Of a DNA stretch of 64,000 bases, positions 274-53,460 are shown piece by piece. The stretch spans positions 479,521-543,520 of the forward strand of contig CAWAWP010000003.1 in NCBI GenBank assembly GCA_963785845.1, read 5' to 3'. Position 1 is the first letter of the stretch. Each line of letters begins with the position of its first letter. This stretch comes from an uncultured Chloroflexia bacterium. Lineage in GTDB: Bacteria; Chloroflexota; Ktedonobacteria; Ktedonobacterales; JADMIN01. The translations under genes and the position numbers were made by a program. Under the pieces are notes generated by a model. It ran no database searches and was not told the origin of the DNA. It worked only from the letters and a program-made list of their open reading frames with translations.

Positions 274-547
274 AATTTCCGTTTTCTTCCGCTTTTTTGT
301 CGAGAGTGAGGAGTGGAGGGTGCATTCAAGGGGGAAACGCGTCGTCGAGGCGGAAAGCGGAAGGTGGGCTTTTTCCGCTTCGTCGCGCGGGGAATGGGTG
401 ACTGTGGGGCGGAGGCGAGCGTGGTGAGGGGATGCGCCGGGGTGGAAGTGGGAAGACGTAGGTGAAATGGGTATCAGTGGGGGCAGGAGGTGTTGTGAAC
501 AGATGTTCTGTAGCGAGTATACCATGTGGCGTTGGCAGGCGCAAGGG
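274..547 (-). ncRNA. Candidate SOS-regulated dispersed structured element, copy A
   Basis: TTGCGC-N17-TATACT promoter (TGGTATACT 524-516), GAACATCTGTTC box 508-497, CTTCCGCTTTCCGC 363-350, core motif 303-274 shared with 23398 and 53431. Confidence 0.45.
497..508. promoter_or_regulatory. LexA (SOS) box
   Basis: GAACAGATGTTC, a perfect GAAC-N4-GTTC. Confidence 0.75.
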
Positions 548-573
548 TGGCGCGGTGTTGCGGGGCGCGGGCA

Positions 574-772
574 TCAGCCGCGGGGCGGGTCGTCGGGGAG
601 ATCGTGTGGGATTGGCGTGGTTTCCGCCGCTGCGAGGTGGTCCTTTGACGACGGCGAGGCCGATCAGCAGGATCATCAGCGCGAGCGGGGCGACGACGGA
701 GACGACGGTGAGCCACGCCAGCGACGGTGGACTCGCGGCGTTCGCCAGGTGCGCCAGGGTTAACTCGCCCAC
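574..772 (-). CDS. Small single-TM membrane protein (likely 1-nt frameshift near 645)
   Basis: GTG start with GGAG RBS and a TTGACA-N17-TACCCT promoter. After the TM helix, removing one A gives a plausible end KDHLAAAETTPIPHDLPDDPPRG*. Confidence 0.45.
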
Positions 773-887
773 GTATCCACTCCGTCGCTTCGCATGCAGC
801 CATCCTTGGGAGGGTAGTGCGCGGGGAGGGCGCTGTCAATGCCGCGGGGGCAGATCATTCCGAACGATCTCGGCGAGATGTAACAAG

Positions 888-969
888 TCGCCTTCAGGTC
901 GGCCTCCAGCCGGTCGGAGAAGGCGGCGTCCTTGGAGCTATAGCTGAGAAACACGCGCGGCGCCGCCAT
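888..969 (-). pseudogene. Truncated TIR-domain gene (N-terminal fragment)
   Basis: MAAPRVFLSYSSKDAAFSDRLEADLKA matches TIR betaA-alphaA and has a good RBS; similarity stops abruptly. Confidence 0.7.
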
Positions 970-1074
970 GACGCATCCCTCCGTTCACGTGGATCGAAAA
1001 TTAGTGACCGAGCAAGACTCGCGACATAATTTTCCCGGTGTGCAAGAGGCTCCCATCGTCGAGTATTCGCCATT

Positions 1075-2184
1075 TGTACTACGAAGCTTCGTCCGTTACG
1101 ACCGTGCGGTAATCCTCGTTGAAAGGAGGAGACGCACGGGAGGAGGAAGCAGCCGTGAGCATGAACCCGCAAGAGCGCATCGCGCGCCACCGGCTGAGCG
1201 TGCTGGAGCTCGCCGAGGCGCTGCAGAACGTCAGCGCCGCCTGCCGACAACGCGGCATGACGCGGACGCAGTTCTACGACTACAAGCGACGTTTCGAGGT
1301 GCAAGGGCTGGAGGGGCTCAAGGATCTGCCGCCGATCCACAAGAGCCACCCGCAGACCACGCCGGACGCGGTGGTCGAGCGCATCCTGGCGTTGAGTTTG
1401 GCCCATCCCGCTTGGGGCTGTTGTCGGCTTGAGGCCCACCTCAAGCTGGACGGCGTCAGCGTGAGTAGTCCCACGATCCAATCCATCCTGATCAAGCACG
1501 CGATGGGCACGCGGTTCCAGCGCCTGCTCAAGCTCGAGGACCACGCCGCGCAGGAGGGCTTCGAGCTGACGCCGGAGCAGGTCCGCGCCGTCGAGAACGC
1601 TAACCCCGCCTTCCGCGAGCGCCACATCGAGTCGACGCGTCCCGGCGAGTTGCTCGCCGCCGACACCTTCTTCGTCGGCGCCTTCAAGGGGGTGGGCAAG
1701 GTCTACCTGCACACGGTCGTCGACACCTATGGCAGCTATGCCTTCGGCTTCCTGCACATCTCCAAGGTGCCCGAGGCCGCCGTCTCGACGCTGCACAACG
1801 ATGCGTTGCCGTTCTATGCCGAGCGCGCCATCCCTGTCTCCGCGCTCCTCACCGACAACGGTCGCGAGTTCTGCGGCACGCCAGCCCATCCCTACGAGGT
1901 CTATCTGGCCCTCAACGGCATCGAGCACCGACGGACCAAGGTCCGCAGCCCCAAGACCAACGGCTTCGTTGAGCGCTTCCAGCGCACCGCCAAGGAAGAG
2001 TTCTTCGAGATCGCCCTGCGGGAGACCTTCTACGAGTCGGTCGAGGCGTTACAGACCGACTTCGACGCCTGGCTGGCCCACTACAACACCGAGCGTCCGC
2101 ACCTCGGCTACCGCAACCGCGGCAAGCGCCCGATCGACACCGTGAATGCCTACTCGCCTGTCAGGGACGAAGCCTCGTAGTACA
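1075..2184 (+). mobile_element. IS481-family insertion sequence, 1110 bp
   Basis: Terminal IRs TGTACTACGAAGCTTCGTCC / GGACGAAGCCTCGTAGTACA (19/20 match, TGT..ACA ends); 7-bp direct repeat CGCCATT at 1068-1074 and 2185-2191. Confidence 0.95.
1161..2180 (+). CDS. IS481-family DDE transposase
   Basis: N-terminal HTH (NVSAACRQRGMTRTQFY), ADTFFVG, TDNGREF, TNGFVERF, YNTERPH; stop codon lies inside the right IR. Confidence 0.95.
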   Translation: MNPQERIARHRLSVLELAEALQNVSAACRQRGMTRTQFYDYKRRFEVQGLEGLKDLPPIHKSHPQTTPDAVVERILALSLAHPAWGCCRLEAHLKLDGVSVSSPTIQSILIKHAMGTRFQRLLKLEDHAAQEGFELTPEQVRAVENANPAFRERHIESTRPGELLAADTFFVGAFKGVGKVYLHTVVDTYGSYAFGFLHISKVPEAAVSTLHNDALPFYAERAIPVSALLTDNGREFCGTPAHPYEVYLALNGIEHRRTKVRSPKTNGFVERFQRTAKEEFFEIALRETFYESVEALQTDFDAWLAHYNTERPHLGYRNRGKRPIDTVNAYSPVRDEAS

Positions 2185-2420
2185 CGCCATTTCGCGAACG
2201 GCTTGCAGGCCGGTCGGCACAAATAGTATCAATCCGACTCCTGTTTAAACGGTCCCAAACAATTCCCTCCCTCTTCGCGCTACGCAATCAGTTACCGCAG
2301 CAGGCATCATGAAGAGAGTGCTTCCAGTCATCTATCTCAGTCACCATTCCGACAATGGCTAACCCACCTGGATGAACTCGTCCCATTTAGTTGTGCAGCG
2401 CGTCGACCGGCGATCTTGCT

Positions 2421-3647
2421 TCACGCGCCACTCGGACCCGGAACCTGTAGTGTTTGTTCATGCAGCGCACCGATGACGCTCTCAAACGTCGAGAGGGCAT
2501 CGGTAGATACTTCGTAACTGGCGAATATTGGGGATTTCCCTGGCATATCTTCCTCGTTGTAAATCTGTAAGGTTGGTGACACGTGGATGACTCGGTGGCG
2601 GTAACGGATGTACCTCTGCATATCGCTGAGAGCAACAGTGGAGACCACCATCGCGCCAAAACGGATGCCATAACAAGCGGCATACGCCTTCTTGGATATT
2701 TCATAGTTTTGAAAGTTGACGTTGTTGTCCTCGATCAATTGGCGGATTGGAGACACTCCCGTCCGCTCCGCGCTCTGCGCGGTTTGCGTTGCGATGTCCT
2801 GCGCGTGCTTAGACTTGCCTAGGATCTTTTGCACAAGTCTGTCAAAGTCGGCCAGTCGCCCTTCTTCGACCATCTCTACGAATCTGTCTTCGCAATACGT
2901 TTCGTAGCCCGTCACAAGCATCGAAAGTGCCTGATTGGCAAGTGTTACGTGAAGCAGGTGATCCACAACACCGGCCTTCAAGTGTTCCAGCAGTAACCTT
3001 ACGGCCTTAGTCACCTGCCTCCAAGTGTCTATGGCCGCAGACTTCAGCACAAGCTTGCCTTCTGCGTTGATGACGCGCACATTGGTGACTATGATGCTCG
3101 ACCCGACGGCCATCTCTCCAATATTGCCATCGTCACTGACAAGCAGCTTCCTCTGTGTACTCAATGCACCTTCCGCCAGCACGTATCCCGACTCCGCTGG
3201 GTGCCCGACTGCAAGGCTGATCCCAGCATGCGACCAGGAAAGCGCGAAATACAGCTCGCTCACCGGCTTCATGCCGGTTAGTATTGCTGTAGCTTCTCTC
3301 GTTCCCTCACCAGGGGCAGCGTGGGTGAAACGCACCATCTCTCCGTATTTTTCAAGGACGCAAAGAGTCCTTCCAGCTACCAGTCGTAGCAGCAACCGCT
3401 CGTCACCGAGAGGAAAGATTCCGCGACCGGGCACTGTTACGCCGAGTGCGCCTTTGGGCCGGAAGAGGTCAACACACATTTCAGCGACAACGTGTTTGGG
3501 AAGGTCAGGTGTGTAGTTCGCAGGGCTGTCTGCTCGCACGCGAACTGAGTAGCCTGGCTGATTTTCTGCCACGCTTCTCTCACTCCTGACACGTGCAATT
3601 GCCCTGCGGTTGAGCCTTTGAATGATGCAGGCCAAGCAGGTGGGCAA
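2421..3647 (-). CDS. Hypothetical protein with C-terminal HEPN-like domain (start uncertain)
   Basis: 408-aa ORF in visibly lower-GC DNA; GYETYCED, NFQN and RHRVIH (Rx4H) motifs; beta-rich N-terminus. Confidence 0.6.
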   Translation of the reverse strand: MPTCLACIIQRLNRRAIARVRSERSVAENQPGYSVRVRADSPANYTPDLPKHVVAEMCVDLFRPKGALGVTVPGRGIFPLGDERLLLRLVAGRTLCVLEKYGEMVRFTHAAPGEGTREATAILTGMKPVSELYFALSWSHAGISLAVGHPAESGYVLAEGALSTQRKLLVSDDGNIGEMAVGSSIIVTNVRVINAEGKLVLKSAAIDTWRQVTKAVRLLLEHLKAGVVDHLLHVTLANQALSMLVTGYETYCEDRFVEMVEEGRLADFDRLVQKILGKSKHAQDIATQTAQSAERTGVSPIRQLIEDNNVNFQNYEISKKAYAACYGIRFGAMVVSTVALSDMQRYIRYRHRVIHVSPTLQIYNEEDMPGKSPIFASYEVSTDALSTFESVIGALHEQTLQVPGPSGA

Positions 3648-3651
3648 AGTG

Positions 3652-3695
3652 CAGGCAACACCGGACTACTCATCAGGCAACGCTGGACTACTCAT
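3652..3695. repeat. Tandem 22-bp direct repeat (2 copies)
   Basis: CAGGCAACACCGGACTACTCAT / CAGGCAACGCTGGACTACTCAT, 20/22 identical. Confidence 0.85.
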
Positions 3696-4206
3696 ATAGA
3701 ATGAATGTACCACAGCCACCCTGCAGCCGTAACCGCTAAGACTGAATGCTAGCTACTCCCGATTGAAATTGTCACCATCACCAGGAGGATATGCATCAAA
3801 TGCACGATTGGGATGCACAGCTACAAGGCGGCATCGACTATGAGGAGAGCATCAAGTTACTTGTGCCCTAGCTACGGCAAGTAGTCCTACAAAATGCCGT
3901 GAAGTCGATTCTGTTCCGGTTGCCGCGCGCTTTCCCGTTGAGCCCAACCCATGCGCTCTGCGTCGCTGCCGGAGTACGGGAGTGGGTCGTTCCTGCGTTC
4001 CTCGGCTAGTGGTGCTAAGGGGCGCTTGGAGGACTCCACGATGGGCTTGGGGCGCGTCAATGCGGCATGACGTGACAGAACGCTGGTGGCGAGGAACGCG
4101 GCGGCGAGGAGGATGAGGCACAGGCGTTACGCGCTGTGGACGGCAGCATGCTACACTGGGCGGGACCGGCGCAGATCGCTCGCTCGCGCGCCGGAGGGAG
4201 GCGCGC

Positions 4207-4827
4207 ATGTGGAACTGGAATAACGGCGGCATGGGCGGGAATGACCCGATGTCGATGGTCTCGAACCTCGATACGATCATCAAGACGGGGAGCGATCTCG
4301 TCCAATTGATCCAGGGCGTGAAGGGGTTGCTCGGCAAGTCGGGGGCGAACCCACAGGCGTTCTCGCCGCAGCCACAGCAGACGATGCAGGCGCCGCAGAT
4401 GCAGGCGTTCCGCCCGCAGATGCAGGACCCGTATCGCGGCGGGGCGCAGTGGCTGCCGCAGATCCAGCAACTCGCGGCGCAGAATGGCAACGCCTGGGTG
4501 CCGCAGCAGACGCAGGGCATCGGCGATGTCGATCTCACCGGCGTGTGGTGCCCGCCAGGGAACCCGATGGACCAGACGTACATCCGCCAGTTCGGGCCGT
4601 ACCTCAACCTCGTCGCCGGGATCATGGGGATGCCCACGGTCGTCGCCGAGGGCCTCTACGATCCCGTGCACCGCAGCGTCTACATCGTGGGGCGCTACTT
4701 CAATGGCGCGCCGGTTGAGGTGCGCTCGCAGTTGCTGCCGAACTGGATGCTCCAGGGCGTGATGACGATCCCTGGCCCGACGGGCTATCCGATGCAAATG
4801 CCGCATCTCGCCGTCAAGGTCGCCTGA
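4207..4827 (+). CDS. Hypothetical protein (Q/M/P-rich linker plus C-terminal beta domain)
   Basis: GGAGG RBS, GC-rich third codon positions, 206 aa. Confidence 0.8.
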   Translation: MWNWNNGGMGGNDPMSMVSNLDTIIKTGSDLVQLIQGVKGLLGKSGANPQAFSPQPQQTMQAPQMQAFRPQMQDPYRGGAQWLPQIQQLAAQNGNAWVPQQTQGIGDVDLTGVWCPPGNPMDQTYIRQFGPYLNLVAGIMGMPTVVAEGLYDPVHRSVYIVGRYFNGAPVEVRSQLLPNWMLQGVMTIPGPTGYPMQMPHLAVKVA

Positions 4828-4865
4828 GACGACTCGACGGCGAGGGGAAGTCCGCGGCGCGTGTC

Positions 4866-5561
4866 TTACGCCGACGGCGCCGTGCCGTCTGGCGTCGCGT
4901 TCGGGTCCTCGACGGGTTGCTCCGGCGGCCCGAACATCGTGCGCAGGCGGTCGCCGAGCGTCGGCTTCTCCGCACGCGTCACCTCAAACGGGCGCTCGTC
5001 GGTCGCGGTGGCGTTCGCCGGGGCGCGGGTGGCATCGCGCTGCGCGCCGGGGGCGGCATCCGTTTGCCGCGCGTCTGGTGACGCTGTTGTTGGGGCAACG
5101 CCGTTCGCCAGCATACCCTGATCCACGCCACCATGCTGAATCGCGGCTACCGCGGCGGCCTCGGCGCGATCGGCCTTTGCCGCCAGGTCGTCGCGCTCGC
5201 GCTGCGCCTGATCCTGCGCCTGCGCCGCCGCATCGCGCTCGCGTTCAAGCGTTGCGACGCGCGACTGCAAGGTGGTGTTTGCACTGCTTTGTTCGGCGAG
5301 CTGCCGTTCGAGCAGCGCGCTGCGCTCGCGGGCGAGGCTGCGCTGCTTGCCGGCGGTGCTCAACGCCGGGGTCAGCGCCAGCACCGTCAGGAGGATGCCG
5401 AGCGCCGCGGCAACGACGACGGGGATCCACTCGGCGACGGTGAAGGTGGCGCCGAACATCACATAGGTCGCGTTCGCCTGATTGCCAACGGCGAAGACGA
5501 CAAGCGCGACGACGAAGAGCGCCAGGAGTAGCGCGGCAAGGAGTGCAACGAATGCACGCAT
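4866..5561 (-). CDS. LapA/DUF1049-like membrane protein with coiled coil
   Basis: Two TM helices with FAVGN motif, then a coiled coil; AAGGAGG RBS. Confidence 0.75.
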   Translation of the reverse strand: MRAFVALLAALLLALFVVALVVFAVGNQANATYVMFGATFTVAEWIPVVVAAALGILLTVLALTPALSTAGKQRSLARERSALLERQLAEQSSANTTLQSRVATLERERDAAAQAQDQAQRERDDLAAKADRAEAAAVAAIQHGGVDQGMLANGVAPTTASPDARQTDAAPGAQRDATRAPANATATDERPFEVTRAEKPTLGDRLRTMFGPPEQPVEDPNATPDGTAPSA

Positions 5562-5718
5562 GATGGGCCTCCTTCCCCGCGACGGACTATCCGCGCGGGC
5601 AGTTCTATGGCACAATCGCTGAGGATGCAGGATGTATGCCGCGCGTGACGAACGCTGGCGTATCGTGGCGCGGGGTGGCGTGGGCAAGCGGGCGTTTGGG
5701 TGGTGAGGGGACGGCTCG

Positions 5719-7203
5719 ATGACGCGGCCAGAGCAGCGGGGGACGGGGCGCGGCGGGCGCGGACAGACAGCCGCAGTGGCGCGTCGTCGCGGCCAGAGCA
5801 CTCTGGTGGACCCTGACGTGGCGCCGTCGGCCAAGGGCGCAAACAGCGTACGTACGCTGCCGGCGTGGAGGATACCGACGCGCGCGGAACTGCGCGAGCG
5901 CCTGCGCGCGTGGGACACGCCGTGGAGTCGCCTGGCACTCCACGCGGCGGGCATGTGGCTCGCCACGCGGCTCGCGTACATCGCGCTGACCTTCTTCGCC
6001 GTGGCCCTCAGCGCGCCGGTGAAGACGTCCTACACCGTGGGCATCCTGCTGCAACACTGGGAACGGCTCGACACCAACTGGTACGTCAACATTTCGCGCT
6101 ACGGCTATTGGGCACCCAGCGCCGCGACCTTCGCCCGCGACGGCGGCCAGATGCCTACCGCGTTCTTCCCGCTCTATCCGATGCTGATCCGGGTGATGAG
6201 CGGCGTGCTGGGGGATACGCAACGCACCTTCTCGGCGCTGCTCGTCGCCAACCTCGGCACACTGCTCGCCTTCGTCGGCATGGCGTTCTTTGCCGCTAAC
6301 GAGGATGGGATCGCCTCCGGCACACGCGCGCTACGCCTGGCGGCGGCCTATCCACTGGCGTTCTTTCTTGTCGCGGGCTATACGGATGGACTTTTCTTCG
6401 GTCTCGCCGTCTTCACGTTGTTCTTCGCGCGGCGTGGCCGGTGGTACCTGGCGGCGCTCTGCGCCTTCATCGCCGCGCTCACGCGCATCACCGCGCTGGC
6501 GCTGATTCTGCCGCTCGCCTGGGAGTATGGACGCCAGCAGGGCTGGTGGCGCGGCATCGCTACGCTGTCTCGGCGCATCGCCGCGTGGGGGCGCGCCGGC
6601 TTCCACGAGCGGGTAGCACCGTCGCCGAGGCTTGGGGCCGGCTTCAGCCGCCACGCGTGGCGCGTGGCGCGGTCGCTCGGCGCTGGTCTGCTGGTCGTCG
6701 GCGCCGCGCCGCTCGGCATCGGACTCTACATGCTGTACCTCGGCGAGACGTTTCACGATCCGCTGAGCTTTGCCCACGCGGCGCAGGCGGGCTGGTATCA
6801 CGTCACGCTCGCACCGTGGAGGTCGATCCCGCTGGGGGTGCGCAGCTTCTTCGCGCTGCCGCCGTGGTCGTACGCGCAGGCGCAGATCCTGCTCGATCTC
6901 GGCGCTGTCTGCGCCTTCGCGGTGCTGACGATCCTCGCCGCGCGCCGCATGCCCGTCGCTTTCACGCTCTATATGGCGGGGCTGCTCACCCTGGCGATTG
7001 CCTCGCCGACAATTTATAGCGGCAACGCCAACATCTTCTCTTCCGCTGGACGCTACCTGATCCCTTCAGCGCCGATCTTCCTGATGCTCTCGCGCTGGAG
7101 CGCCAAATGGCCGGCGCTTGAGACATTCCTCGTCGATGGCGGCTTCTTGCTGCAGGCGACGCTCGCGACGCTGTGGCTCGCCGTCGCCGCCTATATCGTC
7201 TGA
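5719..7203 (+). CDS. GT-C mannosyltransferase (PIG-V-like)
   Basis: WERLDTNWY, AFFPLYP, YTDGLF motifs; multi-TM. Confidence 0.85.
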   Translation: MTRPEQRGTGRGGRGQTAAVARRRGQSTLVDPDVAPSAKGANSVRTLPAWRIPTRAELRERLRAWDTPWSRLALHAAGMWLATRLAYIALTFFAVALSAPVKTSYTVGILLQHWERLDTNWYVNISRYGYWAPSAATFARDGGQMPTAFFPLYPMLIRVMSGVLGDTQRTFSALLVANLGTLLAFVGMAFFAANEDGIASGTRALRLAAAYPLAFFLVAGYTDGLFFGLAVFTLFFARRGRWYLAALCAFIAALTRITALALILPLAWEYGRQQGWWRGIATLSRRIAAWGRAGFHERVAPSPRLGAGFSRHAWRVARSLGAGLLVVGAAPLGIGLYMLYLGETFHDPLSFAHAAQAGWYHVTLAPWRSIPLGVRSFFALPPWSYAQAQILLDLGAVCAFAVLTILAARRMPVAFTLYMAGLLTLAIASPTIYSGNANIFSSAGRYLIPSAPIFLMLSRWSAKWPALETFLVDGGFLLQATLATLWLAVAAYIV

Positions 7204-7224
7204 GGACGCGGGAGCACGCCACCG

Positions 7225-8256: not shown

Positions 8257-8436
8257 AGATCTTACCTTGTCCTCGTTTCCGGGCACGCTATGCGCCGGCA
8301 TCCTCAGCATGAGGGTAGCAGAAAGCGCACTGGGTGTCATCCCAGCAAGCGGTATAGCGCATCTCTCATCTCGGCGTATGGTACACGAAAGGTGGGACGT
8401 TTTTCGAGGGGCAGTGCAAGCCAGGCGCAATCGTCG

Positions 8437-9321: not shown

Positions 9322-9573
9322 GAGGGGCCTCCTTTCGCTGGTGAAGCGAACCAACGGAGACCTACGACGCAATTTTCACGCCGCCCTGGATTTCGGCTCT
9401 CGACGCGAGCCGCCGGCGGGTATGCGTACGGGCTGACCAGTATTCTGATTACACGTTGCACGCTTTCTGACAGAATGGCGTATACGTGTAGCGACGGCTC
9501 TGGCAGTGCGGAATGCGGCACGTCCGGACCGGCCGGACCAGGCATCGCTGCCGCCGACCCAAGGAGGCCCGAT

Positions 9574-10356: not shown

Positions 10357-10564
10357 CCGATTCGCATGCAAGGCGAATGTTGCTGTCCTAGCGGATAAAA
10401 CGTCTCCTACTCGCTGACACTATGGAAGCCGCGTGGAGTGACGGCGCGGGCGTTGCGGACCGTCGATCACCGCGATCCGATGGCCCGCACCGCCAAAGAA
10501 CGCCGCCTCAGTCGCTCGAAGTCTATGCGTAGGACTCCGCGCCTATGGGTGTCAGCACGCGGTA

Positions 10565-11776: not shown

Positions 11777-11802
11777 GACGGAGCCTCCTCAGGGCGCGAC
11801 CC

Positions 11803-13078: not shown

Positions 13079-13209
13079 CACCAGCTCGCTTTGGAGCTAG
13101 CCGCGCACCCGCATCTGGCGTGCGCGGCTCTTTCGTCGCGCCACGAGCCGATTGGCTACGCGATTGGCTACGAGGCGCGGCGCTCCGGAGCGCGCGGAGG
13201 GATGAACCC

Positions 13210-14391: not shown

Positions 14392-14402
14392 CGCCACGGC
14401 AT

Positions 14403-23161: not shown

Positions 23162-23494
23162 TGGTATACTGCGCTTGAAACATGTGTTCTACTCGCGACC
23201 AAGTCGCGTCGCCGCACCATCCGCGAAAGATCGCCTCCATGCCGCTCTCACGCACGCTGCCACATCGCGCGCTCCGGTCCTTCCGTGTCGCGCCTCGCTT
23301 CGGCGGATGGTCGGCTTCCGCTCGCGCCAGAATTTCCGCCCCATGCGCCGCGCAGCGCCGCAAATGGGCTCTGCTCCCCGCAATTGGCGCCGATCGTGAC
23401 GAAAAAGCGGAAGAAAACGGAAATTGTTGCGCGGCAATCGCGTGCCATTCCCGCCGACCGGCGATCGCACGGCGGAAGAAAACGGAAAAAGCGG
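23162..23494 (+). ncRNA. Candidate SOS-regulated dispersed structured element, copy B
   Basis: TGGTATACT-N7-AAACATGTGTTC, same spacing as copy A; core motif 23398-23425; partial second core 23472-23494. Confidence 0.45.
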
Positions 23495-23504: not shown

Positions 23505-24443
23505 TTATCCCGTCACGCCGGACTTCACCACGATATCGTTCACCACCCCGCGCACACCGGGGATGCGCTTGGCGATATCCTCCGCCGCATAGCGCGTCTT
23601 GACGTCTGGCGCGTCACCCCTCAGGATGATCAGCGCGTGCTCGCTCAGCACGTTAATGGTGTCCAATCCCTTCGCCGCCAGCGCCTCCTCGACCAGCCCC
23701 TTCAAATCCTCCAGATAGAGCAGATGATCGGCCACCTCCACCACGCCGGGCGTCTCGAGCAGTTCAGTGGTCGCCTGGTTGCCTTCCGCCCGCAGCGCCG
23801 CGCGGCCATAGAGCGAAACGCGGCCAGCTTCCACCTCGATGTTCATGTCCTGGTGGCGATGCTCGCTATACGAATAGTTGTTGATCGAGTGGACATTGCG
23901 CGCAATCGTCTCGTTCGCGCCGCGCAGAATCACGTCATCGGGCAAGAATACGGGCAGGTTGGGGTACTCGCCTGGGTCGATCCGCAGATCCAACTGCGCG
24001 ACGGCCTGGTCGCCCTGCTCCACATAATCGCCCAGCACGAGCGCCGAGGCGGGCGCCACCACCGGGTGCCGCGTCCGCAGCCCGCTCCCCGCCAGCGCGG
24101 CGACGACGAAGTGCGTGGCGAACTCCGCGCCTTTGCCATCCTTGTTCACCACGCGCACGCCCAGCAAGCCGACCTCCGCACGGCCCCGCTTGCCCTCGTG
24201 GAGCAGCCCGAACACCGTCGCCCGCGTCAGCGCGAGGTACGAGCCAGCGCCATCGGTGCCAGGGAGCGCGGCGTCGCACTCCGCCCGCCACATCGGACCC
24301 TCAGGATAGAGTCGCACGGCCACGCAGACGAGGTTCTCCGGGCTCGCCAGCGGCTTCACCGCCGGGGGCCAGTGCTCCACCTCATCAGCGCCGCGATTCG
24401 GACGCAGGTAATAGTATCGGACGGGCCCGGTGACGACGTCCAT
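23505..24443 (-). CDS. BON-domain protein (two BON domains, PRC-barrel-like N-terminus)
   Basis: GRVSLYG..PGVVEVADHL; IPGVRGVVNDI. Confidence 0.8.
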   Translation of the reverse strand: MDVVTGPVRYYYLRPNRGADEVEHWPPAVKPLASPENLVCVAVRLYPEGPMWRAECDAALPGTDGAGSYLALTRATVFGLLHEGKRGRAEVGLLGVRVVNKDGKGAEFATHFVVAALAGSGLRTRHPVVAPASALVLGDYVEQGDQAVAQLDLRIDPGEYPNLPVFLPDDVILRGANETIARNVHSINNYSYSEHRHQDMNIEVEAGRVSLYGRAALRAEGNQATTELLETPGVVEVADHLLYLEDLKGLVEEALAAKGLDTINVLSEHALIILRGDAPDVKTRYAAEDIAKRIPGVRGVVNDIVVKSGVTG

Positions 24444-37395: not shown

Positions 37396-37467
37396 TGCCC
37401 CCAGGGCGACTCGAACGCCCGCCACCGGCTTCGGAGGCCGGTACTCTATCCACTGAGCTATGGGGGC
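37396..37467 (-). tRNA. tRNA-Arg (anticodon CCG), CCA not encoded
   Basis: Complete cloverleaf: GCCCCCA/TGGGGGC acceptor stem, CCGGC-CTCCGAA-GCCGG anticodon arm, TTCGA T-loop. Confidence 0.96.
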
Positions 37468-38056: not shown

Positions 38057-38061
38057 CGCTC

Positions 38062-41574: not shown

Positions 41575-41597
41575 GCGACGGAGGGAGGTACGCACAC

Positions 41598-41996: not shown

Positions 41997-42070
41997 ATGT
42001 ACTAACCGTACGCAATGCGCTAGCGGCGCCGGGTCACGGACGACCTGGGGCCGAAGGAGTAGACGACGCA

Positions 42071-43573: not shown

Positions 43574-43587
43574 AGAGGCGCCGTCGT

Positions 43588-44952: not shown

Positions 44953-45026
44953 TGCGCTGGCTTTCGGCGCGCTAGGGGTTGGCACGCCGAGCAACGGTCC
45001 CGACGCAGTCTTACACGAGCAGAACG

Positions 45027-46004: not shown

Positions 46005-46028
46005 CGATCTGCGCCTGCTAGCGTCGGA

Positions 46029-47120: not shown

Positions 47121-47277
47121 CGCCAACGTACCAGCCGGTACTGCCGCGGAGTGCGGCTCGTCTCGGCTCGCCGTCGTCCGCCATTGCAGCGCCGAAGTGA
47201 CGCGAAGCGCGACGCGTGCCGCTGCCCAACGTCGCGCATCACAAGCCCGCAGCACCGCTGCTCTATCCTCGTTGCGC

Positions 47278-48483
47278 TCACGGCAGCGTCAGCAGTCCGA
47301 GTTTGACCTTCAGCGCGATGATGCGGTGCAGCGCCTCGTGCAGCCGCGCCTGCGGGATGCGACCAGACGCGACGGCCTGGGTCATGGCGTTCACCGTCGC
47401 CTCCAGGCGATCCTGCTCGATCGGCGCTTCGATGAGGTCATCGCCAGCGAGGAATGCGCGGACGCAGGCTTCGGCGACGCCCTGCGCCGGATCGGCGTAG
47501 CCCTGCTGCTGCATGAACTGGATCAACCCCTGCGCGTCCATCGCGTCGGTGACGACGACGCCCGCATACCCCAGATCCCCCCGCAGCACCTGCTGCACGA
47601 GCACAGGCGAGAGTGAGGCCGGTGCCTGATCGTCGTATGCCGGGACGATCACGTGCGTGACCATGATCATGTCCGGCGTGTGACCGAGCAGCGCCTTGAA
47701 TGAGGCGAAGTCGATGGCGTTGAGTTGGTCCCGCGTGTGATCCACCGTTGGGAGGACGTAGTCAGGGTTGCCGGAGGAGGCGCCGAGTCCCGGCCAGTGC
47801 TTCAGCGTGCCGCCGACGCCGTTCTGCTGCAGCCCGTCGAGGAAGGCCCCGGCGTACGTGGCGACGTCATCAGGCGTCGTACCAAAGGTGCGGCTCTGGT
47901 CAATACCACCCCCCTGGAAGACATCGGCGAGCGGCGCAAAGTCCACATTGAGGCCAAGTTCGCGCATATGCTGGGCGTCGGTCTGCGCTTGGGCGTACGC
48001 CTGCTGCGGATCGCCGGTGGCGGCGAGATCCTGCGGCGCGGGTGTCTGGCCGTAGTAGTACGAGAGGCGATCGACCTCGCCGCCTTCTTCATCGGTCGCC
48101 AGCAGCAGCGGCGTCTCCGCGTGCGCCTTGAGATCGCTGATCAGCTGCTTCATACCGTCGAGCGTCGCCGGCATCACCGGGCCGCCGTTGTAGTTGGTGA
48201 AGACGATCGCGCTGCCGATATGCCATTGGGTCAGCGCCTGGTCGAGATCGGCGTTATAACTGTCGGCGTAGACCGCCATCATCAGCGTCTGGCCAACCTG
48301 CTGCGCCGGCGTAAGCTTGGCGATGTAGGCGTCGATGCGTGCGTCGAGGCTCGCCGTCGCCGTACTGCTCGGCGACCCGCCGCCGCCGATCGTCACGCTA
48401 CAGCCCGCCAGCAGTGCCGAAAGCGTCAGCGCCAGCAGGAGACGGCGCACGGCGCTGGGCGCACGCCAATGGCGAATATGCAC
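47278..48483 (-). CDS. GH3 beta-N-acetylhexosaminidase-like lipoprotein
   Basis: Lipobox LAGC; DEEGG, FAPLAD, KHWPG, VVTDAM. Confidence 0.87.
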   Translation of the reverse strand: MHIRHWRAPSAVRRLLLALTLSALLAGCSVTIGGGGSPSSTATASLDARIDAYIAKLTPAQQVGQTLMMAVYADSYNADLDQALTQWHIGSAIVFTNYNGGPVMPATLDGMKQLISDLKAHAETPLLLATDEEGGEVDRLSYYYGQTPAPQDLAATGDPQQAYAQAQTDAQHMRELGLNVDFAPLADVFQGGGIDQSRTFGTTPDDVATYAGAFLDGLQQNGVGGTLKHWPGLGASSGNPDYVLPTVDHTRDQLNAIDFASFKALLGHTPDMIMVTHVIVPAYDDQAPASLSPVLVQQVLRGDLGYAGVVVTDAMDAQGLIQFMQQQGYADPAQGVAEACVRAFLAGDDLIEAPIEQDRLEATVNAMTQAVASGRIPQARLHEALHRIIALKVKLGLLTLP

Positions 48484-48631
48484 GGGCCCTCCGGTAGACC
48501 ACCACGAAAGACGAGCGGATGACACCTCAGTATGCGTCGCGCGCCGCCGCCATGTGTGTGACGCGCGAGACACTTTCCTCCAGGCTGTGCTACCAACCGC
48601 CAGGGCCACTGTGCTCGCCGCTCATGCGCGT

Positions 48632-50014
48632 CTACGGCGCAGCCACCACGCCCGTCGCGGCTTCCGCCAGTTGCAGCTCCGAGCGCGAGTGCGCCGCGCG
48701 CCGCAGCGAGAAGAATGGGCGCTCGATGATGAAGTACGAGGCCGAGCAATAGATCAGAATCGCTATCCACGCCTTGATCGACAGCCACAGGTAGCCATTT
48801 GGCGAGTCGTTGGGCATCGCCGCCGCGAGACTATTGATGATCGGTAGGTGCCAGACATAGATGCTGTACGAAATCACCCCGATATACCGCAGCGGCGCCA
48901 GCGCAAAGAACTGGCGCAGTATCCGTGGCCCCATCAGCACCGAGAACACCAGCAGCGCGAAGCAGACCCCCAGCACCCACGCGCCCAGGATCGTCCACGA
49001 CGGCCCCGCGACGCCAAAAATCCACGAATATTGATTGGTGTTGCTTGCCGTCCCCGGCGCTTGCGTCCCCCAGAAGACGCTCCCCGCGAGCCCGGCGATC
49101 GCCGCGACGAACGCGCACGTGCCAAGCACCGCCCCCCAGACGCGCGTGAGTCGGCCCCGCTCGACCCCGACGATATAGATCACGCTCAGCCCCATGCCCA
49201 GCGCGAACGTTTCGAGTTGCTTGCCCTGGACCCCCGAGACGATCCCGTAGAGGATGCCGAGTCCGTTCGGCGCGTCCAGCGGAAAGATGCCGTAGTGGAA
49301 CCACAGGATCGCGGTCAACGTGCGAATGCTCAGCCCCCACGCCACCAGCGCGCCCAGCGCCACGCCGATGCGCAGATAGAGCGCCCGGCCGCTGGTACGC
49401 CCCGCGAAGCGCCTGATCGCCCGCGCGATCCACGGCAACAGCAGGTAAAACTGCCACTCGATAGCCAGCGTCCAGAAGACGATGTTCACATTCTGGACGA
49501 GAGCCGTAGATGCGTGTGTCGTATCGTGCAGCAGCACACCCGCCAGCAGTAGCGACGGTATCTGCTCACCGTCAGATGTGACCGTGCCCGCAAAGAGCAG
49601 CAGAGTGCATAGCGCAAAGAGATAGAGCGGCAAAATGCGCAGCATCCTGCGCACGTAGAACTTCTTCGTCGAGGGCAGCGGCGCGCCGGAGAGGATCGCG
49701 CGCGCGAATGGCAGGAACAGCAGAAATCCCGAAAGCACAAAGAACAGGTCGACGCCGGAAAATCCCCAGTCCGCGATCCGCTCGAAAAAATCGGAGCCCA
49801 CGGGCCACTGCCGCGAGAGCGCCCGCGTGTTCACATGGTGCAAGACCACAAGCACGATGGCCAGCGCCCGCAGGCCGTCCACCGCGAGGATCTCGCGCGT
49901 CGCGCCGCTAGTCGGGACCAAGCGACTGATCGCCTTCAGTCGGCCACCAATGGAACGCGCGATCCCTCTGCTGCCCTGCTGTTCGACTGGCGCAACCACG
50001 CCAATGTCCATCAA
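48632..50014 (-). CDS. OafA-like acyltransferase-3
   Basis: DGLRALA, GVDLFFVLSGFL, RRMLRILPLY, WTLAIEWQFY, ISYSIYVWH. Confidence 0.92.
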   Translation of the reverse strand: MMDIGVVAPVEQQGSRGIARSIGGRLKAISRLVPTSGATREILAVDGLRALAIVLVVLHHVNTRALSRQWPVGSDFFERIADWGFSGVDLFFVLSGFLLFLPFARAILSGAPLPSTKKFYVRRMLRILPLYLFALCTLLLFAGTVTSDGEQIPSLLLAGVLLHDTTHASTALVQNVNIVFWTLAIEWQFYLLLPWIARAIRRFAGRTSGRALYLRIGVALGALVAWGLSIRTLTAILWFHYGIFPLDAPNGLGILYGIVSGVQGKQLETFALGMGLSVIYIVGVERGRLTRVWGAVLGTCAFVAAIAGLAGSVFWGTQAPGTASNTNQYSWIFGVAGPSWTILGAWVLGVCFALLVFSVLMGPRILRQFFALAPLRYIGVISYSIYVWHLPIINSLAAAMPNDSPNGYLWLSIKAWIAILIYCSASYFIIERPFFSLRRAAHSRSELQLAEAATGVVAAP

Positions 50015-50243
50015 GATGCTCCTGCGAGTCGAGCGGCGTGGTGCTGAACGCGCTGCGCCAACGAAGAAAATGCCTGGCCGTAGTCGCCGCCACGCGATCT
50101 ACACACGCGCGATGCGCCACATTCTTGCGGGGCACATGTATAAACCGCCGAACAGTGATACTATCGGACGATGAATGACCCTGTCAACGCGATCGGCGCA
50201 TGCGGGCATGCTGGCCCGCAACGCACATTCCCATGCCGCCCGC

Positions 50244-51077
50244 TTATGCCGGCGCGTACGCGGCGACGAGCATGCCGAAATACGTCGGTCGCTCGTAACT
50301 GAGGATCTCGCCGCGCATCGGCACGCGCTCCAACGCCCCGGCGAGCACGAGCATCTGCCAGAGCGCGTCGGGGCAGGCGCGGCGCACGATCTCCATATCG
50401 GCGTGCCGTAGCCGTTGCAGATCATTATCACGCACGGCATCGAGCATCCACTCGTCGAACTGTGCCGCGGCGGGATCGAACCCGTAGGGGCCATCCGCCG
50501 CGTGGGCATGCGACTGATCGGCGCTGGCGACCAGCGCAACGCGGCGCCCACTCCCCTCGGCGGCCTCCGCGACGACACGACCAAACGCCACCAGCGCGTC
50601 GAGCGGCAGCAGCCGCGACGGCACGACGATCACCGTCTTCGGCGGATCGGCCTGGCGCGCGCCGAGAAAGTGCAGCGGAATCACCGCCCCCCAGTCAAGC
50701 GGATAGCAGTCGGCATCGCCGCTCGTCGCCCCGTAATGCACCATCGCCACTGGGACGCCGGCGGCGGACGCGCCCGTCTGGAGCGCCAGGGCAAGTTCTC
50801 GATCCACGGCAAGATCGACGCCAGCGGAGAAAGCTGCGCGCCCCTCAGATGCCGGCTCGTCAACCGTCCCGGCGGCGCGCTCCGCGAGCGAGATCGCCAG
50901 TGCGCCGTCCACCCGGATGCCATGCGGCGTCACCACCACAACGGTCTCGGGCCGCGCCGCTGCCATCCGTCGGCCAACTTCCTCCATCGCCGCCGTGGTC
51001 CGCGCGCACTGCTCCGCGCCCTCCAGACCGGGGATGATGCCGCCATGCGGCGCGACACAGGCGAAATCAAGTGTCAT
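50244..51077 (-). CDS. LigB/MEMO-like extradiol dioxygenase family protein
   Basis: APHG, TPHG, LDWG, ASADQSH, YFG. Confidence 0.82.
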   Translation of the reverse strand: MTLDFACVAPHGGIIPGLEGAEQCARTTAAMEEVGRRMAAARPETVVVVTPHGIRVDGALAISLAERAAGTVDEPASEGRAAFSAGVDLAVDRELALALQTGASAAGVPVAMVHYGATSGDADCYPLDWGAVIPLHFLGARQADPPKTVIVVPSRLLPLDALVAFGRVVAEAAEGSGRRVALVASADQSHAHAADGPYGFDPAAAQFDEWMLDAVRDNDLQRLRHADMEIVRRACPDALWQMLVLAGALERVPMRGEILSYERPTYFGMLVAAYAPA

Positions 51078-51181
51078 GGCTGGCCTCCATGTGACGGCGG
51101 AGACAACGTCTGGCGAGATCATACTATCATCGGCGGATGGGCGCATGCGCGCCGAGTCCGACCGTGTGAACGGAGGCGGCG

Positions 51182-52311
51182 ATGGACGACGTGATCGTAA
51201 TTGGCGGCGGCATCGTCGGTGCCAGTGCCGCGTACGCGCTGGCGCGTGAGGGCCTCCGCGTAACGCTGGTGGACGCCGAGGAGGCGGGTCAGGCGACGGC
51301 GGCGGGCGCTGGCATCATCGCGCCCGGTACCACGTTTCGTTCCCCGCGCGGGGTTCTACCCGCTGGCCTTTGCCGCCGTCGACTACTACCCCGCCCTGCT
51401 CGACCTGCTGGCGGAGGATGGCGAGACCGACAGTGGATTCGCCGTCGTCGGCCTGCTCCACGTCGCCACCACCGAAGCCGAGGCCAGCGCGCTAGCGCCG
51501 TTGTTGCGGCTGCTCGAAGAGCGGCGCGCGGCGGGCGTGGCGTATCTCGGCGAGGTCTCGCTGATCACGGGCGACGAGGCGCGCGCACGCTTCCCCGCTC
51601 TGGGCTCCGTGGTCAGCGCCATCTACGCCTCAGGCGCCGCGCGGGTAGACGGGCGGCTGCTAAGGGACGCGCTGCGTCGCGCCGCCACACTTCGCGGAGC
51701 GCGCATGCTCGCGGGCCGTGCCGAAGTGACCAGGGCGGCGAACGACGGCGTGGAGGTCGTTATAGATGGCGAACGTCACGAGGCCGGCGGCGTGATCCTC
51801 GCCGGAGGCGCCTGGTCCGAGCGAGCGGTGGCGGCGCTCGACCTGCGCATCCCCGTCTATCCGCAGCGTGGGCAGATTCTCCACCTCGATCTCCCCGACG
51901 CCGAGACCGGCGCATGGCCGATCGTCATGGGCTTCCACGCCCACTACCTGCTGGCTTTCGCGCCGCACCGCGTGGTCGCCGGTGCCACACGCGAGGATCG
52001 CCCCGGCTTCGATCCCCGCGCGACGGCGGGCGGCAGTCGCCGAAGCGCTCGGCGAGGCTCTGCGTCTGGCCCCCGGACTCGCCAGCGCGACCCTGCGTGA
52101 GGTCCGCGTCGGGCTGCGACCTGCCAGCCCCGATGGACTACCGCTACTCGGACGCGCGCCCGGCCACGACAACGTCATCATCGCCACGGGCCACGGCGCC
52201 AACGGCCTCCAACTCGGCCCCTACTCCGGCCTGCTCGCGGCGCATCTGCTGTTAGGGCGCGCGGCTCCGCTCGATCTCGCCGCCTTCGCGCCGCAACGCT
52301 TCCACCGCTAG
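51182..52311 (+). CDS. FAD-dependent oxidoreductase (DadA/ThiO-like), with two frameshifts near 51345 and 52030
   Basis: GGGIVG, GQATAAGAG, GAW, PQRGQ, GLRPASPDG, TGHGANGL distributed over different frames. Confidence 0.82.
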
Positions 52312-52328
52312 CAAATCCCACCTCGCCC

Positions 52329-52358
52329 TTGACATGTGACCATATAGTCACATATAAT
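52329..52358 (+). promoter_or_regulatory. Sigma70 promoter with palindromic operator; leaderless transcript likely
   Basis: TTGACA-N18-TATAAT; the spacer is TGTGAC-CATATA-GTCACA; ATG lies 7 nt after the -10. Confidence 0.85.
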
Positions 52359-52365
52359 CCGCGAC

Positions 52366-53136
52366 ATGGACGATGTCTTCAAGGCGCTAGCCGACCCGAC
52401 CCGCCGCGGCATACTCGACGAACTGTATCAGCGCGACGGCCAAACCCTCAGCGAGCTGGAGGGCCGCCTGCCGATGACGCGATTCGGCGTCATGAAGCAC
52501 CTGCGCGTCCTCGAAGAAGCCGGCCTGGTGGTCACCAAACGCCGCGGGCGCGAAAAGCTGCACTTCCTCAACACCGTCCCGATCCGGCTCATCCACGACC
52601 GCTGGGTGAGCAAGTTCGCCGCGCCGTGGGCCGCGACGCTCACCGGCCTCAAGCAACATCTCGAGGAGCGACCGATGGAGAAAGTGTTCGAGATCTACAT
52701 CAAGACGACCCCGGAGCGGCTCTGGCACGCCATCACCGACGACCAACAGCGCCGCGCCTACTGGTTCGGCGTCGGCGTCACCTCAGAGTGGAGCGTCGGC
52801 TCCTCCTATGTGGCCGGCAGCCCTATGTCACCCACGCCAATTTTTCAGGGCGAGAATCTGGAGGTTGATCCACCGCATCGTCTCGTCCAGAGCTTCAACG
52901 CCCTCTGGAGCGACGAAGTCCGCAACGCCGGAACCTCTCGCGTCACCTGGCAGATCGAGCCGATAGGCGACTCGTGTAAGCTCACTGTCACCCACGATCA
53001 ACTCCCCGAAGGCGCCAACGAGCAGGTCTATGGTGGCTGGCCACAGGTCCTCTCTGGCCTCAAGACCCTCCTCGAAACCGGCGAGATGCTCACCACACCC
53101 GGCTCGCTGATGTATACCCGTCCCGCGGCTGGCTAA
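52366..53136 (+). CDS. ArsR-family regulator fused to an SRPBCC domain
   Basis: VFKALADPTRR..KHLRVLEEAGLV; IYIKTTPERLW..GWPQVLSGLKTLLETG. Confidence 0.92.
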   Translation: MDDVFKALADPTRRGILDELYQRDGQTLSELEGRLPMTRFGVMKHLRVLEEAGLVVTKRRGREKLHFLNTVPIRLIHDRWVSKFAAPWAATLTGLKQHLEERPMEKVFEIYIKTTPERLWHAITDDQQRRAYWFGVGVTSEWSVGSSYVAGSPMSPTPIFQGENLEVDPPHRLVQSFNALWSDEVRNAGTSRVTWQIEPIGDSCKLTVTHDQLPEGANEQVYGGWPQVLSGLKTLLETGEMLTTPGSLMYTRPAAG

Positions 53137-53258
53137 CGCCGCACCCCGCCGTGGTGTCTCGCTGGCGTCTCACCGTGAGCGAGCCCGCGGCGCACCGGCG
53201 GACCGGCGACCTCCTCGCCGAACCCGATACGCCCCACGAACTCTGCGCTCCCGTCTCC

Positions 53259-53460
53259 TTGCGCTCTCCCAATGCGTGTGGTATAAAACATATGTTCTAT
53301 GTCTCGCGCTTATATGCCGCCTTGTTGCTGTTCACACCCCTCGCCGGAAAATGCAACAACTTCCGCTTTCCGCAGCATCAACCGCTGACCCGCCGAAATC
53401 GGCTTGAATTCACAGGAGGAAGTGCATACATCGACGAAAAAGCGGAAGAAAACGGAAATT
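53259..53460 (+). ncRNA. Candidate SOS-regulated dispersed structured element, copy C
   Basis: TTGCGC-N17-TATAAA with AAACATATGTTC 53286-53297; CTTCCGCTTTCCGC 53360-53373; core motif 53431-53460. Confidence 0.45.

Follow-up and report, generated by a model that had tools for sequence, protein, structure and literature searches.

A dispersed purine-block family linked to LexA-type promoters in the intergenic DNA of a Ktedonobacterales bacterium

The window analysed here is a stretch of 64,000 nucleotides (nt) of contig CAWAWP010000003.1, from an uncultured Chloroflexia bacterium of the order Ktedonobacterales (assembly GCA_963785845.1). It holds three intergenic copies of a compound element, called a unit below, in which a promoter, a LexA-type box, a C-rich stretch with TTCCGC boxes and a purine block follow one another in a single orientation. 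A preliminary description had taken these three copies for the family, and this proved far too small a number. The 17-mer core of the block, GCGGAAGAAAACGGAAA, has 94 matches at up to two mismatches in the whole source genome (86 of them exact; 4.63 Mb in 6 contigs, GC 0.63-0.66), more than 70 copies are present in the closest relative, the sister species G002, and G009, a genome from another genus, carries a relative of the family in 146 copies. The unit family is old and under selection in the source genome, and the purine and pyrimidine parts of the wider superfamily co-vary. We tentatively favour the view that the units are LexA-gated, cis-acting, non-coding upstream transcription units that carry a control element working at the level of RNA; we regard this as a real possibility, and weigh below the alternatives that explain part of the same evidence.

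Conservation around the core is ungapped from position -14 to +18 (GATCnCGACGAAAAA, the core, then TT), a block of 33 nt with an abrupt 3′ end, and in a census of 12-mers the core family was the most frequent repeat in the source genome apart from low-complexity sequence. The block consists of two GCGGAA-type repeats 11 nt apart, which are complementary to the TTCCGC boxes. When all 94 units were compared with each other by BLAST, the similarity between paralogs was found to be limited to about 105 nt (73-83% identity, with the core close to 100%), a stretch that starts with the TTCCGC boxes and closes with the block; the longest paralog match covered about 130 nt at 73% identity, and the same comparison gave no long near-identical pairs, overlapping tandem cores excepted. 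This shared module is composed of two TTCCGC boxes, the half-palindrome TTGAATTC and the invariant 33-nt purine block. Written as a consensus, the 5′ part of the unit reads cCCTTGCgc, 17 nt, gTGcTATACT, 5-8 nt, t.AGAACATaTGTTCt, and the 3′ part, which lies 86-493 nt beyond the LexA-type box (median 215), reads cTTCCGC(a)TTTCCGCc, about 20 nt, CCCTTGAATTCrcC, about 15 nt, GATCnCGACGAAAAAGCGGAAGAAAACGGAAATT. The hexamer TTCCGC peaks at -80 to -61 from the core, with 82 occurrences in the 94 copies, and 65 of the 94 have one at -100 to -45. A second cluster (36 occurrences) lies on the other side of the block at +100 to +140 in the same core-complementary orientation, and the reverse complement of the hexamer is rare outside the block. 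The segments between box and core are also biased in composition, with 42.4% C and 20.0% G, where 726 upstream regions used as controls have 32.3% and 30.9%; the corresponding values are 41.9% and 22.7% for the units of G002 and 35.6% and 24.7% for those of G009. This C-rich strand bias fits selection on a putative transcript read from the promoter towards the core. As regards a possible type I toxin or other small protein gene under LexA, the stretch from the LexA-type box to the block cannot be aligned between orthologs or between paralogs, and ATG occurs inside some boxes and is absent from others.

A further regularity is the association of this module with one class of promoter. Sixty-two modules made of a -10 element plus a box were found in the source genome, and 42 of these have a core on the same strand within 600 nt downstream; among the 45 that also have a TTG -35 element, the core follows in 37. 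Outside the gene calls there are 344 extended -10 motifs, and a core lies within 650 nt of 35 of the 43 that have a box, against 6 of the 301 that have none. Viewed from the core, a -10 plus box stands within 550 nt upstream in the sense orientation in 45 of 94 copies and in the antisense orientation in 1 of 94, and in 0 of 94 within the 530 nt downstream; the figures in G002 are 24 of 60 and 0 of 60. The claim that promoter, LexA-type box, pyrimidine segment and purine motif make up one oriented unit thus holds genome-wide. The expectation that the other genomic copies would carry promoter and box as well was borne out for the 45 copies just named, and about half of the copies in the source genome lack a strictly recognisable box; by eye, the box is degenerate or overlies the -10 or the spacer at many of the remaining 49 cores, and others of these have an upstream module of a different kind, described below.

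The boxes are of the GAAC-N4-GTTC type with an AT-rich centre, as in the consensus over 42 units, and begin 5-8 nt past the -10 in all 42 (mode 7). Since the box lies only 2 nt past the -10 at recA, whose promoter was correctly said to carry one (GTACACGTGTTC, beyond TACAAT), and 3-4 nt past the respective -10 at the two LexA paralogs, the unit promoters form a coherent class. Their boxes come closer to the ideal palindrome than the recA and lexA1 boxes do, and their -35/-10 type is the generic one of this genome, in which TTGC-type -35 hexamers are frequent among promoters generally. With up to one mismatch allowed, the bare GAAC-N4-GTTC pattern shows no enrichment in the window, where 12 matches compare with 18.95 expected, and the non-random aspect of the box pattern is its linkage to the -10 and to the core; the 22-mer AAAAAGCGGAAGAAAACGGAAA, by comparison, occurs exactly 3 times in the window against 0.00 expected from 100 shuffles. 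The boxes of the unit promoters are putative LexA operators, and the promoters are probably controlled by DNA damage. Two genes with a LexA_DNA_bind domain are present in the source genome, each with its own box. They lie at C4:117541-118197 (-) and C4:392133-392753 (-), both have the cleavage domain region, and one of the two boxes is GC-centred (GAACGAGGGTTC) while the other is AT-centred (GAACATAAGTTC), like the unit boxes.

The position of the units relative to genes is also one-sided. Of the 94 cores, 81 are outside called genes and 13 fall in called open reading frames (ORFs), 12 of them co-oriented with the frame and 1 antisense; 10 of the co-oriented 12 fall within the first 16% of an ORF whose start had been over-extended by the gene caller (copy A of the window is an example). 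A co-oriented gene follows downstream of 77 of the 94 cores (binomial p 2.7e-10), two of these being doubtful with the core deep in an ORF. The other 17 comprise 10 between convergent genes, including copy B of the window, 6 that lie antisense between tandem genes, and 1 within an ORF of the opposite orientation. The preliminary description had proposed a multi-copy non-coding RNA family: the oriented unit and its many copies agree with this, and the co-orientation with downstream genes points to a role in cis rather than to a free-standing small RNA (sRNA). By Pfam, the 74 distinct downstream genes are a mixture of metabolism and housekeeping. They include phosphoenolpyruvate carboxykinase, phosphoglycerate mutase, glycine cleavage P, biotin carboxylase and HisRS; a release factor (RF), a Clp ATPase, RNase J, BipA and ArgJ; and several short-chain dehydrogenases/reductases, M20 peptidases, regulators and a few phage genes. 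A fixed distance between the block and the next promoter was rejected, the distances ranging from 18 to 253 nt with no preferred phase, and a motif oriented by replication was rejected by eye, as 44 forward and 49 reverse copies are intermixed along the contigs.

Comparison with related genomes indicates that the units are confined to one lineage and have been kept there. At up to one mismatch the core is present in 2 of 41 related genomes, the source genome (93) and G002 (66), and was found neither in G001 nor in 38 other relatives; a looser pattern gave only control-level counts in G001, G003, G004 and G006. The sister species G002 is 93% identical to the source genome in BipA and 92% in RF, and G001, which belongs to the same genus and has an assembly that is 73% complete, is 86% and 82% identical in these proteins. 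In G002 the core reads GGAAAC or GAAAGC in place of the GAAAAC of the source genome, the 5′ flank is GATCAAAACGC instead of GATCnCGACGA, and the 3′ flank is often ATGgatcg. All copy numbers for G002 are lower bounds, because the cores of two loci, L234 and L239, are off-consensus and were missed by exact-pattern searches; these orthologous units lie upstream of BipA (GCGGTAGAAAGCGGAAA) and of RF (GTGGAAGAAAGCGGAAA), respectively. The G002 assembly is 7.1 Mb long at 86% completeness and may hold duplications or two strains, and its near-identical locus pairs L204/L220 and L185/L224 map to the same places in the source genome.

Both flanks of 60 G002 copies were mapped to the source genome by tblastx. 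Thirty-seven fall within 3 kb of a core there (34 distinct cores), 2-3 of these mappings being doubtful (one multi-copy flank matching the same place). Often synteny is confined to the downstream flank, so that the unit travels with its downstream gene. In six orthologous pairs that were aligned, the intergenic DNA could not be matched except at the block, the TTCCGC boxes and the gene-proximal promoters, and both species have a -10 plus box in 5 of the 6 (degenerate in G002 in two; at L206 it was not seen in G002). That promoter, box, TTCCGC boxes and core have been kept within otherwise randomised intergenic DNA argues for selection. The remaining 23 of the 60 G002 copies have no counterpart at the orthologous flanks, as at L222, where G002 has a whole unit and the source genome a short spacer; the exact ends of the unit were not resolved by this comparison. 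The BipA and RF genes show the order of events. No unit was found upstream of either gene in G001, G003, G010 and G016, an extended -10 proximal promoter is present at the BipA orthologs of all four of these relatives and at RF only in G001, and in the source genome and G002 the unit stands about 130-250 nt further upstream than the proximal promoter. The unit was thus added in that lineage and then kept. Past the proximal promoter, the BipA leader itself opens with conserved sequence (agtgtgccc and then a possible hairpin) across genera, in the source genome, G001, G002, G003, G010 and G016; this may be a separate 5′ leader element.

A covariance model built from 54 modules and run over 45 genomes of the family gave 81 matches in the source genome, at least 85 in G002 and 9 in G009, with 1-2 weak matches each in G001, G041, G042 and G045; strong matches were confined to the first three. 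G009 carries a GGCAA-type version of the unit. Its block is AAAAAGCGGCAAAAACGGCAAT (GCGGCAA..CGGCAA), and the boxes upstream of it are TTGCCGC or TTGCCAC (TTGCCRC), so that purine units and pyrimidine partners have changed together between genera. A 20-mer from this block has 146 copies in G009 at up to one mismatch, against 0 for the reversed control. The 28 units with enough flanking sequence have on average 5.75 upstream TTGCCR boxes (range 2-9), against 1.0 in the opposite orientation; a promoter-like motif, GGTAAATTAGTTCTA, is found in 19 of the 28 and a standard -10 plus GAAC-N4-GTTC box in 3. The copies are alike over about 400 nt, with the -35 as their left limit and a right limit just past an inverted repeat (CGGCAATGTTGACC, 5-7 nt, GGTCAACATTGCCG) that covers the final unit of the block. 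With up to two mismatches allowed, the CGGCAA-type motif is also present 48 times in the source genome, 64 times in G002 and 44 times in G001, often in tandem arrays.

These observations provide the basis for a model of how the units might work. Inactivation of LexA would fire the unit promoter, and the resulting untranslated, C-rich RNA would offer Rho a natural substrate. The purine block would then pair with the pyrimidine boxes on either side, and this pairing would be the control element: it would decide whether transcription ends there or continues over the gene's own promoter, which would be activated or occluded as a result. Many ordinary genes could thereby be coupled to the LexA signal. 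The complementarity on which the model depends had been pointed out for the three window copies and is real: block and boxes pair in 84.3% of cells, against 36.7-57.3% in slid controls, and the match is preserved by the concerted changes in G009. The pyrimidine boxes before and after the block point the same way, which allows alternative pairings. We count this constant orientation, the conserved promoter aimed at the block and the unit-wide strand bias in favour of RNA. An RfaH-like factor that reads the block was considered and rejected, as the source genome, G001, G002, G010 and G016 have one NusG-domain gene each.

Several results weigh against this model. As to covariation, proposed as a check by the preliminary description, block and boxes have changed together between genera, which recognition of DNA would explain as well; within the family no pair had changed on both sides, since core and block are invariant there. 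RNAalifold on the 94 modules gave no consensus structure (-0.77), and folding z-scores were not significant (mean -0.47, with 8.5% below -2). A purely cis-acting role cannot hold for all units, given the 17 without a co-oriented gene. The 74 downstream genes have no common function by Pfam and are not the SOS set, many of them have conserved promoters of their own, and a strict extended -10 lies between core and gene in only 26 of 77 cases. Gene calls in the source genome come from a crude codon-usage caller (3701 genes, 81% coverage), and the transcription, start site, 3′ end and damage induction of the units are all predicted from sequence. The 11-nt spacing of the block repeats equals one helical turn of DNA, and the source genome has two other families of short periodic repeats (of CGGCA type and of TGTCCG/TGACCG type), which together suggest recognition of DNA by a protein. 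In G009, the arms of the inverted repeat, or hairpin, have frequent mismatches and vary independently, and the matching change between genera is equally expected if one protein reads the motif in both orientations of the DNA. The species-specific concerted variants and the between-genus change fit co-evolution with a DNA-binding protein, or gene conversion, equally well.

These last points make up the case for an array that works as DNA, in which one clade-specific protein (a winged-helix factor resembling a response regulator, a nucleoid protein or a domesticated transposase) would read tandem 7-bp sites 11 bp apart together with inverted boxes, the bound array serving as an insulator, a roadblock or a DNA loop between the LexA promoter and the gene's own promoter. 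We regard this alternative as somewhat doubtful. It would account for direct and inverted copies of a single hexamer at helical-turn spacing, for the concerted differences between the source genome and G002, for the parallel change of block and boxes in G009, for the two further periodic families, for arms in G009 that behave like half-sites and for the partly conserved GATC beside the block. It leaves unexplained why a stretch of several hundred bases should be C-rich and G-poor on one strand and why a conserved promoter should face the block. Moreover, the boxes are spaced at 7-8 nt rather than the 11 nt of the block, the distance from the block to the next promoter is variable and unphased, 33 nearly perfect nucleotides in 86 copies exceed the usual protein site, and no candidate protein was found.

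A third explanation is a decayed, non-autonomous mobile mosaic of the BOX, bacterial interspersed mosaic element (BIME) or miniature inverted-repeat transposable element (MITE) kind, carrying a promoter and having no host function, its core being kept uniform by gene conversion. It would have spread in the common ancestor of the source genome and G002, with the GGCAA-type relative spreading later in G009. The family is indeed restricted to a lineage, 2 of 41 genomes by exact pattern and three of 45 by strong covariance-model matches; copies differ in presence between the two sister species (the 23 of 60 and L222); the unit was added upstream of an older promoter; its 3′ boundary is sharp; G002 has two core subfamilies; and the G009 copies are alike over about 400 nt between clear limits. 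An identity of 33 nt is also about the minimal length for homologous recombination. Other results speak against this explanation. The units have no terminal inverted repeats, the left limit being the -35 region and the right limit the block, which are not inverted copies of each other, and the TTCCGC boxes, inverted relative to the block, are internal and not terminal. No target duplications were seen by eye at the limits in the source genome or G009, copies in the source genome have only about 105 nt in common and include no recent duplicates, and the block is not palindromic, as a repetitive extragenic palindrome (REP) would be. Parts of the unit are retained at orthologous loci in randomised surroundings, and the orientation bias of 77 in 94 would need selection or targeting. 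The earlier suggestion of a non-autonomous element may hold for the origin of the family, and no sign of recent mobility was seen in the source genome; as an account of the present units we judge a mobile element unlikely.

The preliminary description had also seen no linked transposase, and this stands as a general statement. An rve-type (integrase core) transposase gene with helix-turn-helix domains lies at 1119-2177 (+) of the window, about 570 nt upstream of the copy A promoter, and is exceptional. An origin by a REP-associated tyrosine transposase (RAYT) or IS200-type element was rejected: the Y1-like gene of the source genome, C1:417360-417815 (-), is not flanked by cores, the nearest being about 27 kb away. 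This gene is a single-copy IS200-like homolog beside a Clp-type ATPase gene. Weak Y1 matches occur in open frames of 152-153 amino acids in G001 (C32:16657-16959) and G002 (C22:61706-62041), and G002 additionally has about 40 copies of IS200/IS605 type.

It is very unlikely that the units are a trans-acting, multi-copy family of free-standing, LexA-induced sRNAs in which the conserved 3′ module does the work, for example as a sponge for pyrimidine-rich targets or for an RNA-binding protein, such as CsrA, that recognises purine tracts with GGA. Such a family would need its own promoter, which the unit has, and could include copy B and the 16 other units without a co-oriented gene; each block contributes two GGA motifs to a predicted transcript that is otherwise poor in G, and the source genome has a single csrA gene. 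The orientation of the units and their syntenic link to the downstream gene would be unexpected, no intrinsic terminator (GC-rich hairpin plus U-tract) was found on the sense strand past the block at the three window copies, and there would be no precedent for ninety functional ends so nearly identical. A clade-specific partnership with CsrA was likewise not supported, because csrA is present in the source genome and G002 and also in G001, which has no GGAA-type core.

Scarcely credible is the remaining idea, that the blocks are antisense intrinsic terminators whose complement, TTTCCGTTTTCTTCCGCTTTTT, is a U-tract for opposing transcription: a terminator scan does find a hairpin with a T-run on the opposite strand at all three window copies, the partial block of copy B lies directly past the stop of a convergent gene and the 13-bp inverted repeat of G009 precedes a T-rich complement, but the idea was rejected for the source genome because flank pairing there is no commoner than in shuffled sequence (45 of 94 copies, where 20 shuffles gave 42.35 on average and 50 at most, and distal flanks gave 40), and 77 of the 94 copies have no known transcription towards the block on that strand.

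The coordinates of the three window copies and of recA are collected in Table 1. The motifs listed for them in the preliminary description were all present where it had placed them, and the 7-nt spacing from -10 to box in copies A and B and the 17-nt spacer between -35 and -10 in copies A and C were confirmed. The gene-proximal promoter of copy A, P2, fits the consensus at 10 of 12 positions, with 0.0 expected from shuffled sequence. Copy B has no TTGCGC -35 at promoter distance, and since it faces a convergent BON domain gene it has no gene to lead into; the complement of its partial block is the T-rich tail of a terminator-like hairpin (23506-23489, minus strand) directly past the stop of that gene.

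Table 1. Positions in the window of the parts of the three copies, their neighbouring genes and the recA promoter
Feature	Position	Strand	Remarks
Copy A, -35 TTGCGC	539-544	-	17 nt upstream of TATACT; promoter P1
Copy A, extended -10 TGGTATACT of P1	516-524	-	fits the gTGcTATACT consensus of 42 promoter-plus-box modules
Copy A, putative LexA-type operator GAACATCTGTTC	497-508	-	exact palindrome; 7 nt past -10, over expected start
Copy A, non-coding spacer, C-rich and G-poor	363-496	-	
Copy A, two TTCCGC boxes	350-355 and 357-362	-	complementary to purine block
Copy A, CTTGAAT, half of TTGAATTCAA palindrome module	324-330	-	
Copy A, purine block ACTCTCGACAAAAAAGCGGAAGAAAACGGAAATT	274-307	-	invariant; sharp 3′ boundary
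Copy A, gene-proximal promoter P2 (TTGACA, 17 nt, TAGAGT)	233-261	-	12 nt past block
Start codon ATG of RmuC-family gene	186-184	-	GGGAGG 8 nt upstream
RmuC-family gene downstream of copy A, co-oriented, 5′ part	1-186	-	PF02646, E 1.8e-11; continues beyond window
Copy B, extended -10 TGGTATACT of P1	23162-23170	+	
Copy B, operator-like AAACATGTGTTC	23178-23189	+	7 nt past -10; one arm mismatch
Copy B, two TTCCGC boxes	23316-23321 and 23334-23339	+	
Copy B, purine block GATCGTGACGAAAAAGCGGAAGAAAACGGAAATT	23392-23425	+	
Copy B, second, partial block	23471-23494	+	
BON domain gene, convergent to copy B	23505-24443	-	
Copy C, -35 TTGCGC	53259-53264	+	17-nt spacer to -10
Copy C, -10 TGGTATAAA	53279-53287	+	overlaps operator
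Copy C, operator-like AAACATATGTTC	53286-53297	+	one arm mismatch; overlaps -10, not 7 nt past it
Copy C, two TTCCGC boxes	53361-53366 and 53368-53373	+	
Copy C, CTTGAAT module	53403-53409	+	
Copy C, purine block TACATCGACGAAAAAGCGGAAGAAAACGGAAATT	53427-53460	+	
Cache-domain protein gene downstream of copy C, co-oriented	53862-55880	+	
recA operator GTACACGTGTTC	60565-60576	-	recA by PF00154, E 1.3e-136
recA promoter, -10 TACAAT and -35 TTGACG	60579-60584 and 60602-60607	-	

Other repeats share the intergenic DNA with the units. A second dispersed family, (G)AAAATCGGCAGAATCGGCAAGA and its variants, is intergenic and frequently forms tandem arrays about 40-80 nt apart; it is akin in form to the purine block, and G001, G002 and G009 have it too. 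Its loci in the source genome include C1:925614-925890, C4:717734-718137 (reverse-strand index) and C1:897343-897512, and one copy stands in the window just past the recA stop (59302-59320, minus strand). In a subset of unit promoters, as judged by eye, the TTGCGC -35 region gives way to a third periodic module, made up of AAAACTCGTG and then TGTCCG/TGACCG repeats spaced 10 nt apart; examples lie upstream of unit promoters near C3:586300, C3:1209300 and C4:382200. A REP-like hairpin family, CCCTTCCC..GGGAAGGGG and then TAGGGGTTAGG, recurs beside TTCCGC boxes at many unit loci of the source genome and G002 and is also found upstream of the recA promoter (window about 60670-60715, minus strand). 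For annotation, this means that long intergenic regions hold several periodic repeat families that current pipelines ignore. The only match to Rfam at the gathering threshold in the window is a tRNA gene at 37396-37467 (-).

If the cis-acting, LexA-gated model is correct, most LexA-controlled promoters in this genome drive one non-coding module in front of ordinary genes and not repair genes, so that a stress regulon would here be built on another plan, and in a phylum that has received little study. The family would also be a natural case of a regulatory cassette that was copied about 100 times and then selected at orthologous genes. A more far-reaching version, which we consider doubtful, is a clade-wide LexA-gated RNA system with dozens to more than 100 promoters per genome (at least 42 here), each firing on damage to give non-coding RNA copies with a co-evolving block and boxes, the pairs being GGAA/TTCC and GGCAA/TTGCC in the two genera, or else an SOS-activated element that spreads or homogenises by way of its transcript. 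Under that version the non-coding part of the SOS regulon would be several times larger than its protein-coding part, and housekeeping genes would be tied to genome stress. As block and boxes have changed together between genera, models based on RNA pairing and on protein sites should be separable with few constructs.

The family had not been recognised when it was first noticed, and Rfam has no matching family: at E up to 1, window positions 53100-53900 and four unit loci gave only chance-level matches far below the gathering scores. Nor did we find a description of it in the literature on Ktedonobacteria intergenic repeats, on multicopy LexA small RNAs or on LexA sites in repeats and MITEs. 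The closest parallels are partial. BOX elements of Streptococcus pneumoniae are modular intergenic mosaics with variable sub-repeats and complementary ends, reported to modulate neighbouring genes. The units are likewise modular and near genes, with 2-9 TTGCCR boxes in G009, and differ in that the family is conserved at orthologous loci between species, the comparison with BOX being by description only. To our knowledge, descriptions of BOX elements mention no promoter of their own under LexA control, no C-rich spacer and no purine block that is invariant and non-palindromic. REP and BIME sequences, with RAYT (Y1) transposases, are short conserved intergenic mosaics in tens to hundreds of copies with a species-specific consensus; here the block is non-palindromic, the units are upstream of genes and not after them, and the Y1-like gene is unflanked. 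Rho-dependent leader attenuators have a long, untranslated, C-rich and G-poor leader upstream of a gene, with alternative pairings. The stretch in the units is similarly long, C-rich, G-poor and capable of pairing, as judged from its sequence alone, and the putative leader differs in preceding another promoter and in being repeated about 90 times with an invariant element.

Loci of the tisB/istR type in Escherichia coli are non-coding or small genes under LexA control. The available part of a report on Mycobacterium tuberculosis (PMC3381160) also gives LexA sites at genes for small RNAs. In such cases, as far as that part of the report goes, the operator lies over the start of a non-coding or tiny transcription unit, as it would over the expected start in the units; the known cases are single or few in copy number, and here a single repeat family accounts for at least 42 promoters with an operator, exceeding the remaining box-bearing promoters by 35 to 8. 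Correia elements and promoter-carrying MITEs are small, multi-copy and intergenic and can bring promoters and binding sites beside genes. In the units neither terminal inverted repeats nor target duplications were found, and the internal sequence is not conserved between copies, in contrast to MITEs as they are described in general terms in the available part of PMC4666352, which concerns intrastrand triplex repeats. Reused or 'mobile' promoters in prokaryotes are similar promoter regions upstream of unrelated genes in one genome, according to the portion of PMC3575422 at hand; measured against that portion, the units differ in that what they have in common is mainly a non-coding module placed after the promoter, which for its part is of the generic type plus an operator. 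Dispersed mosaic intergenic repeats with regulatory parts are therefore known, whereas the coupling to a LexA promoter, the scale and the co-varying pair of block and boxes are new as far as Rfam and the literature searched on the subjects just named show.

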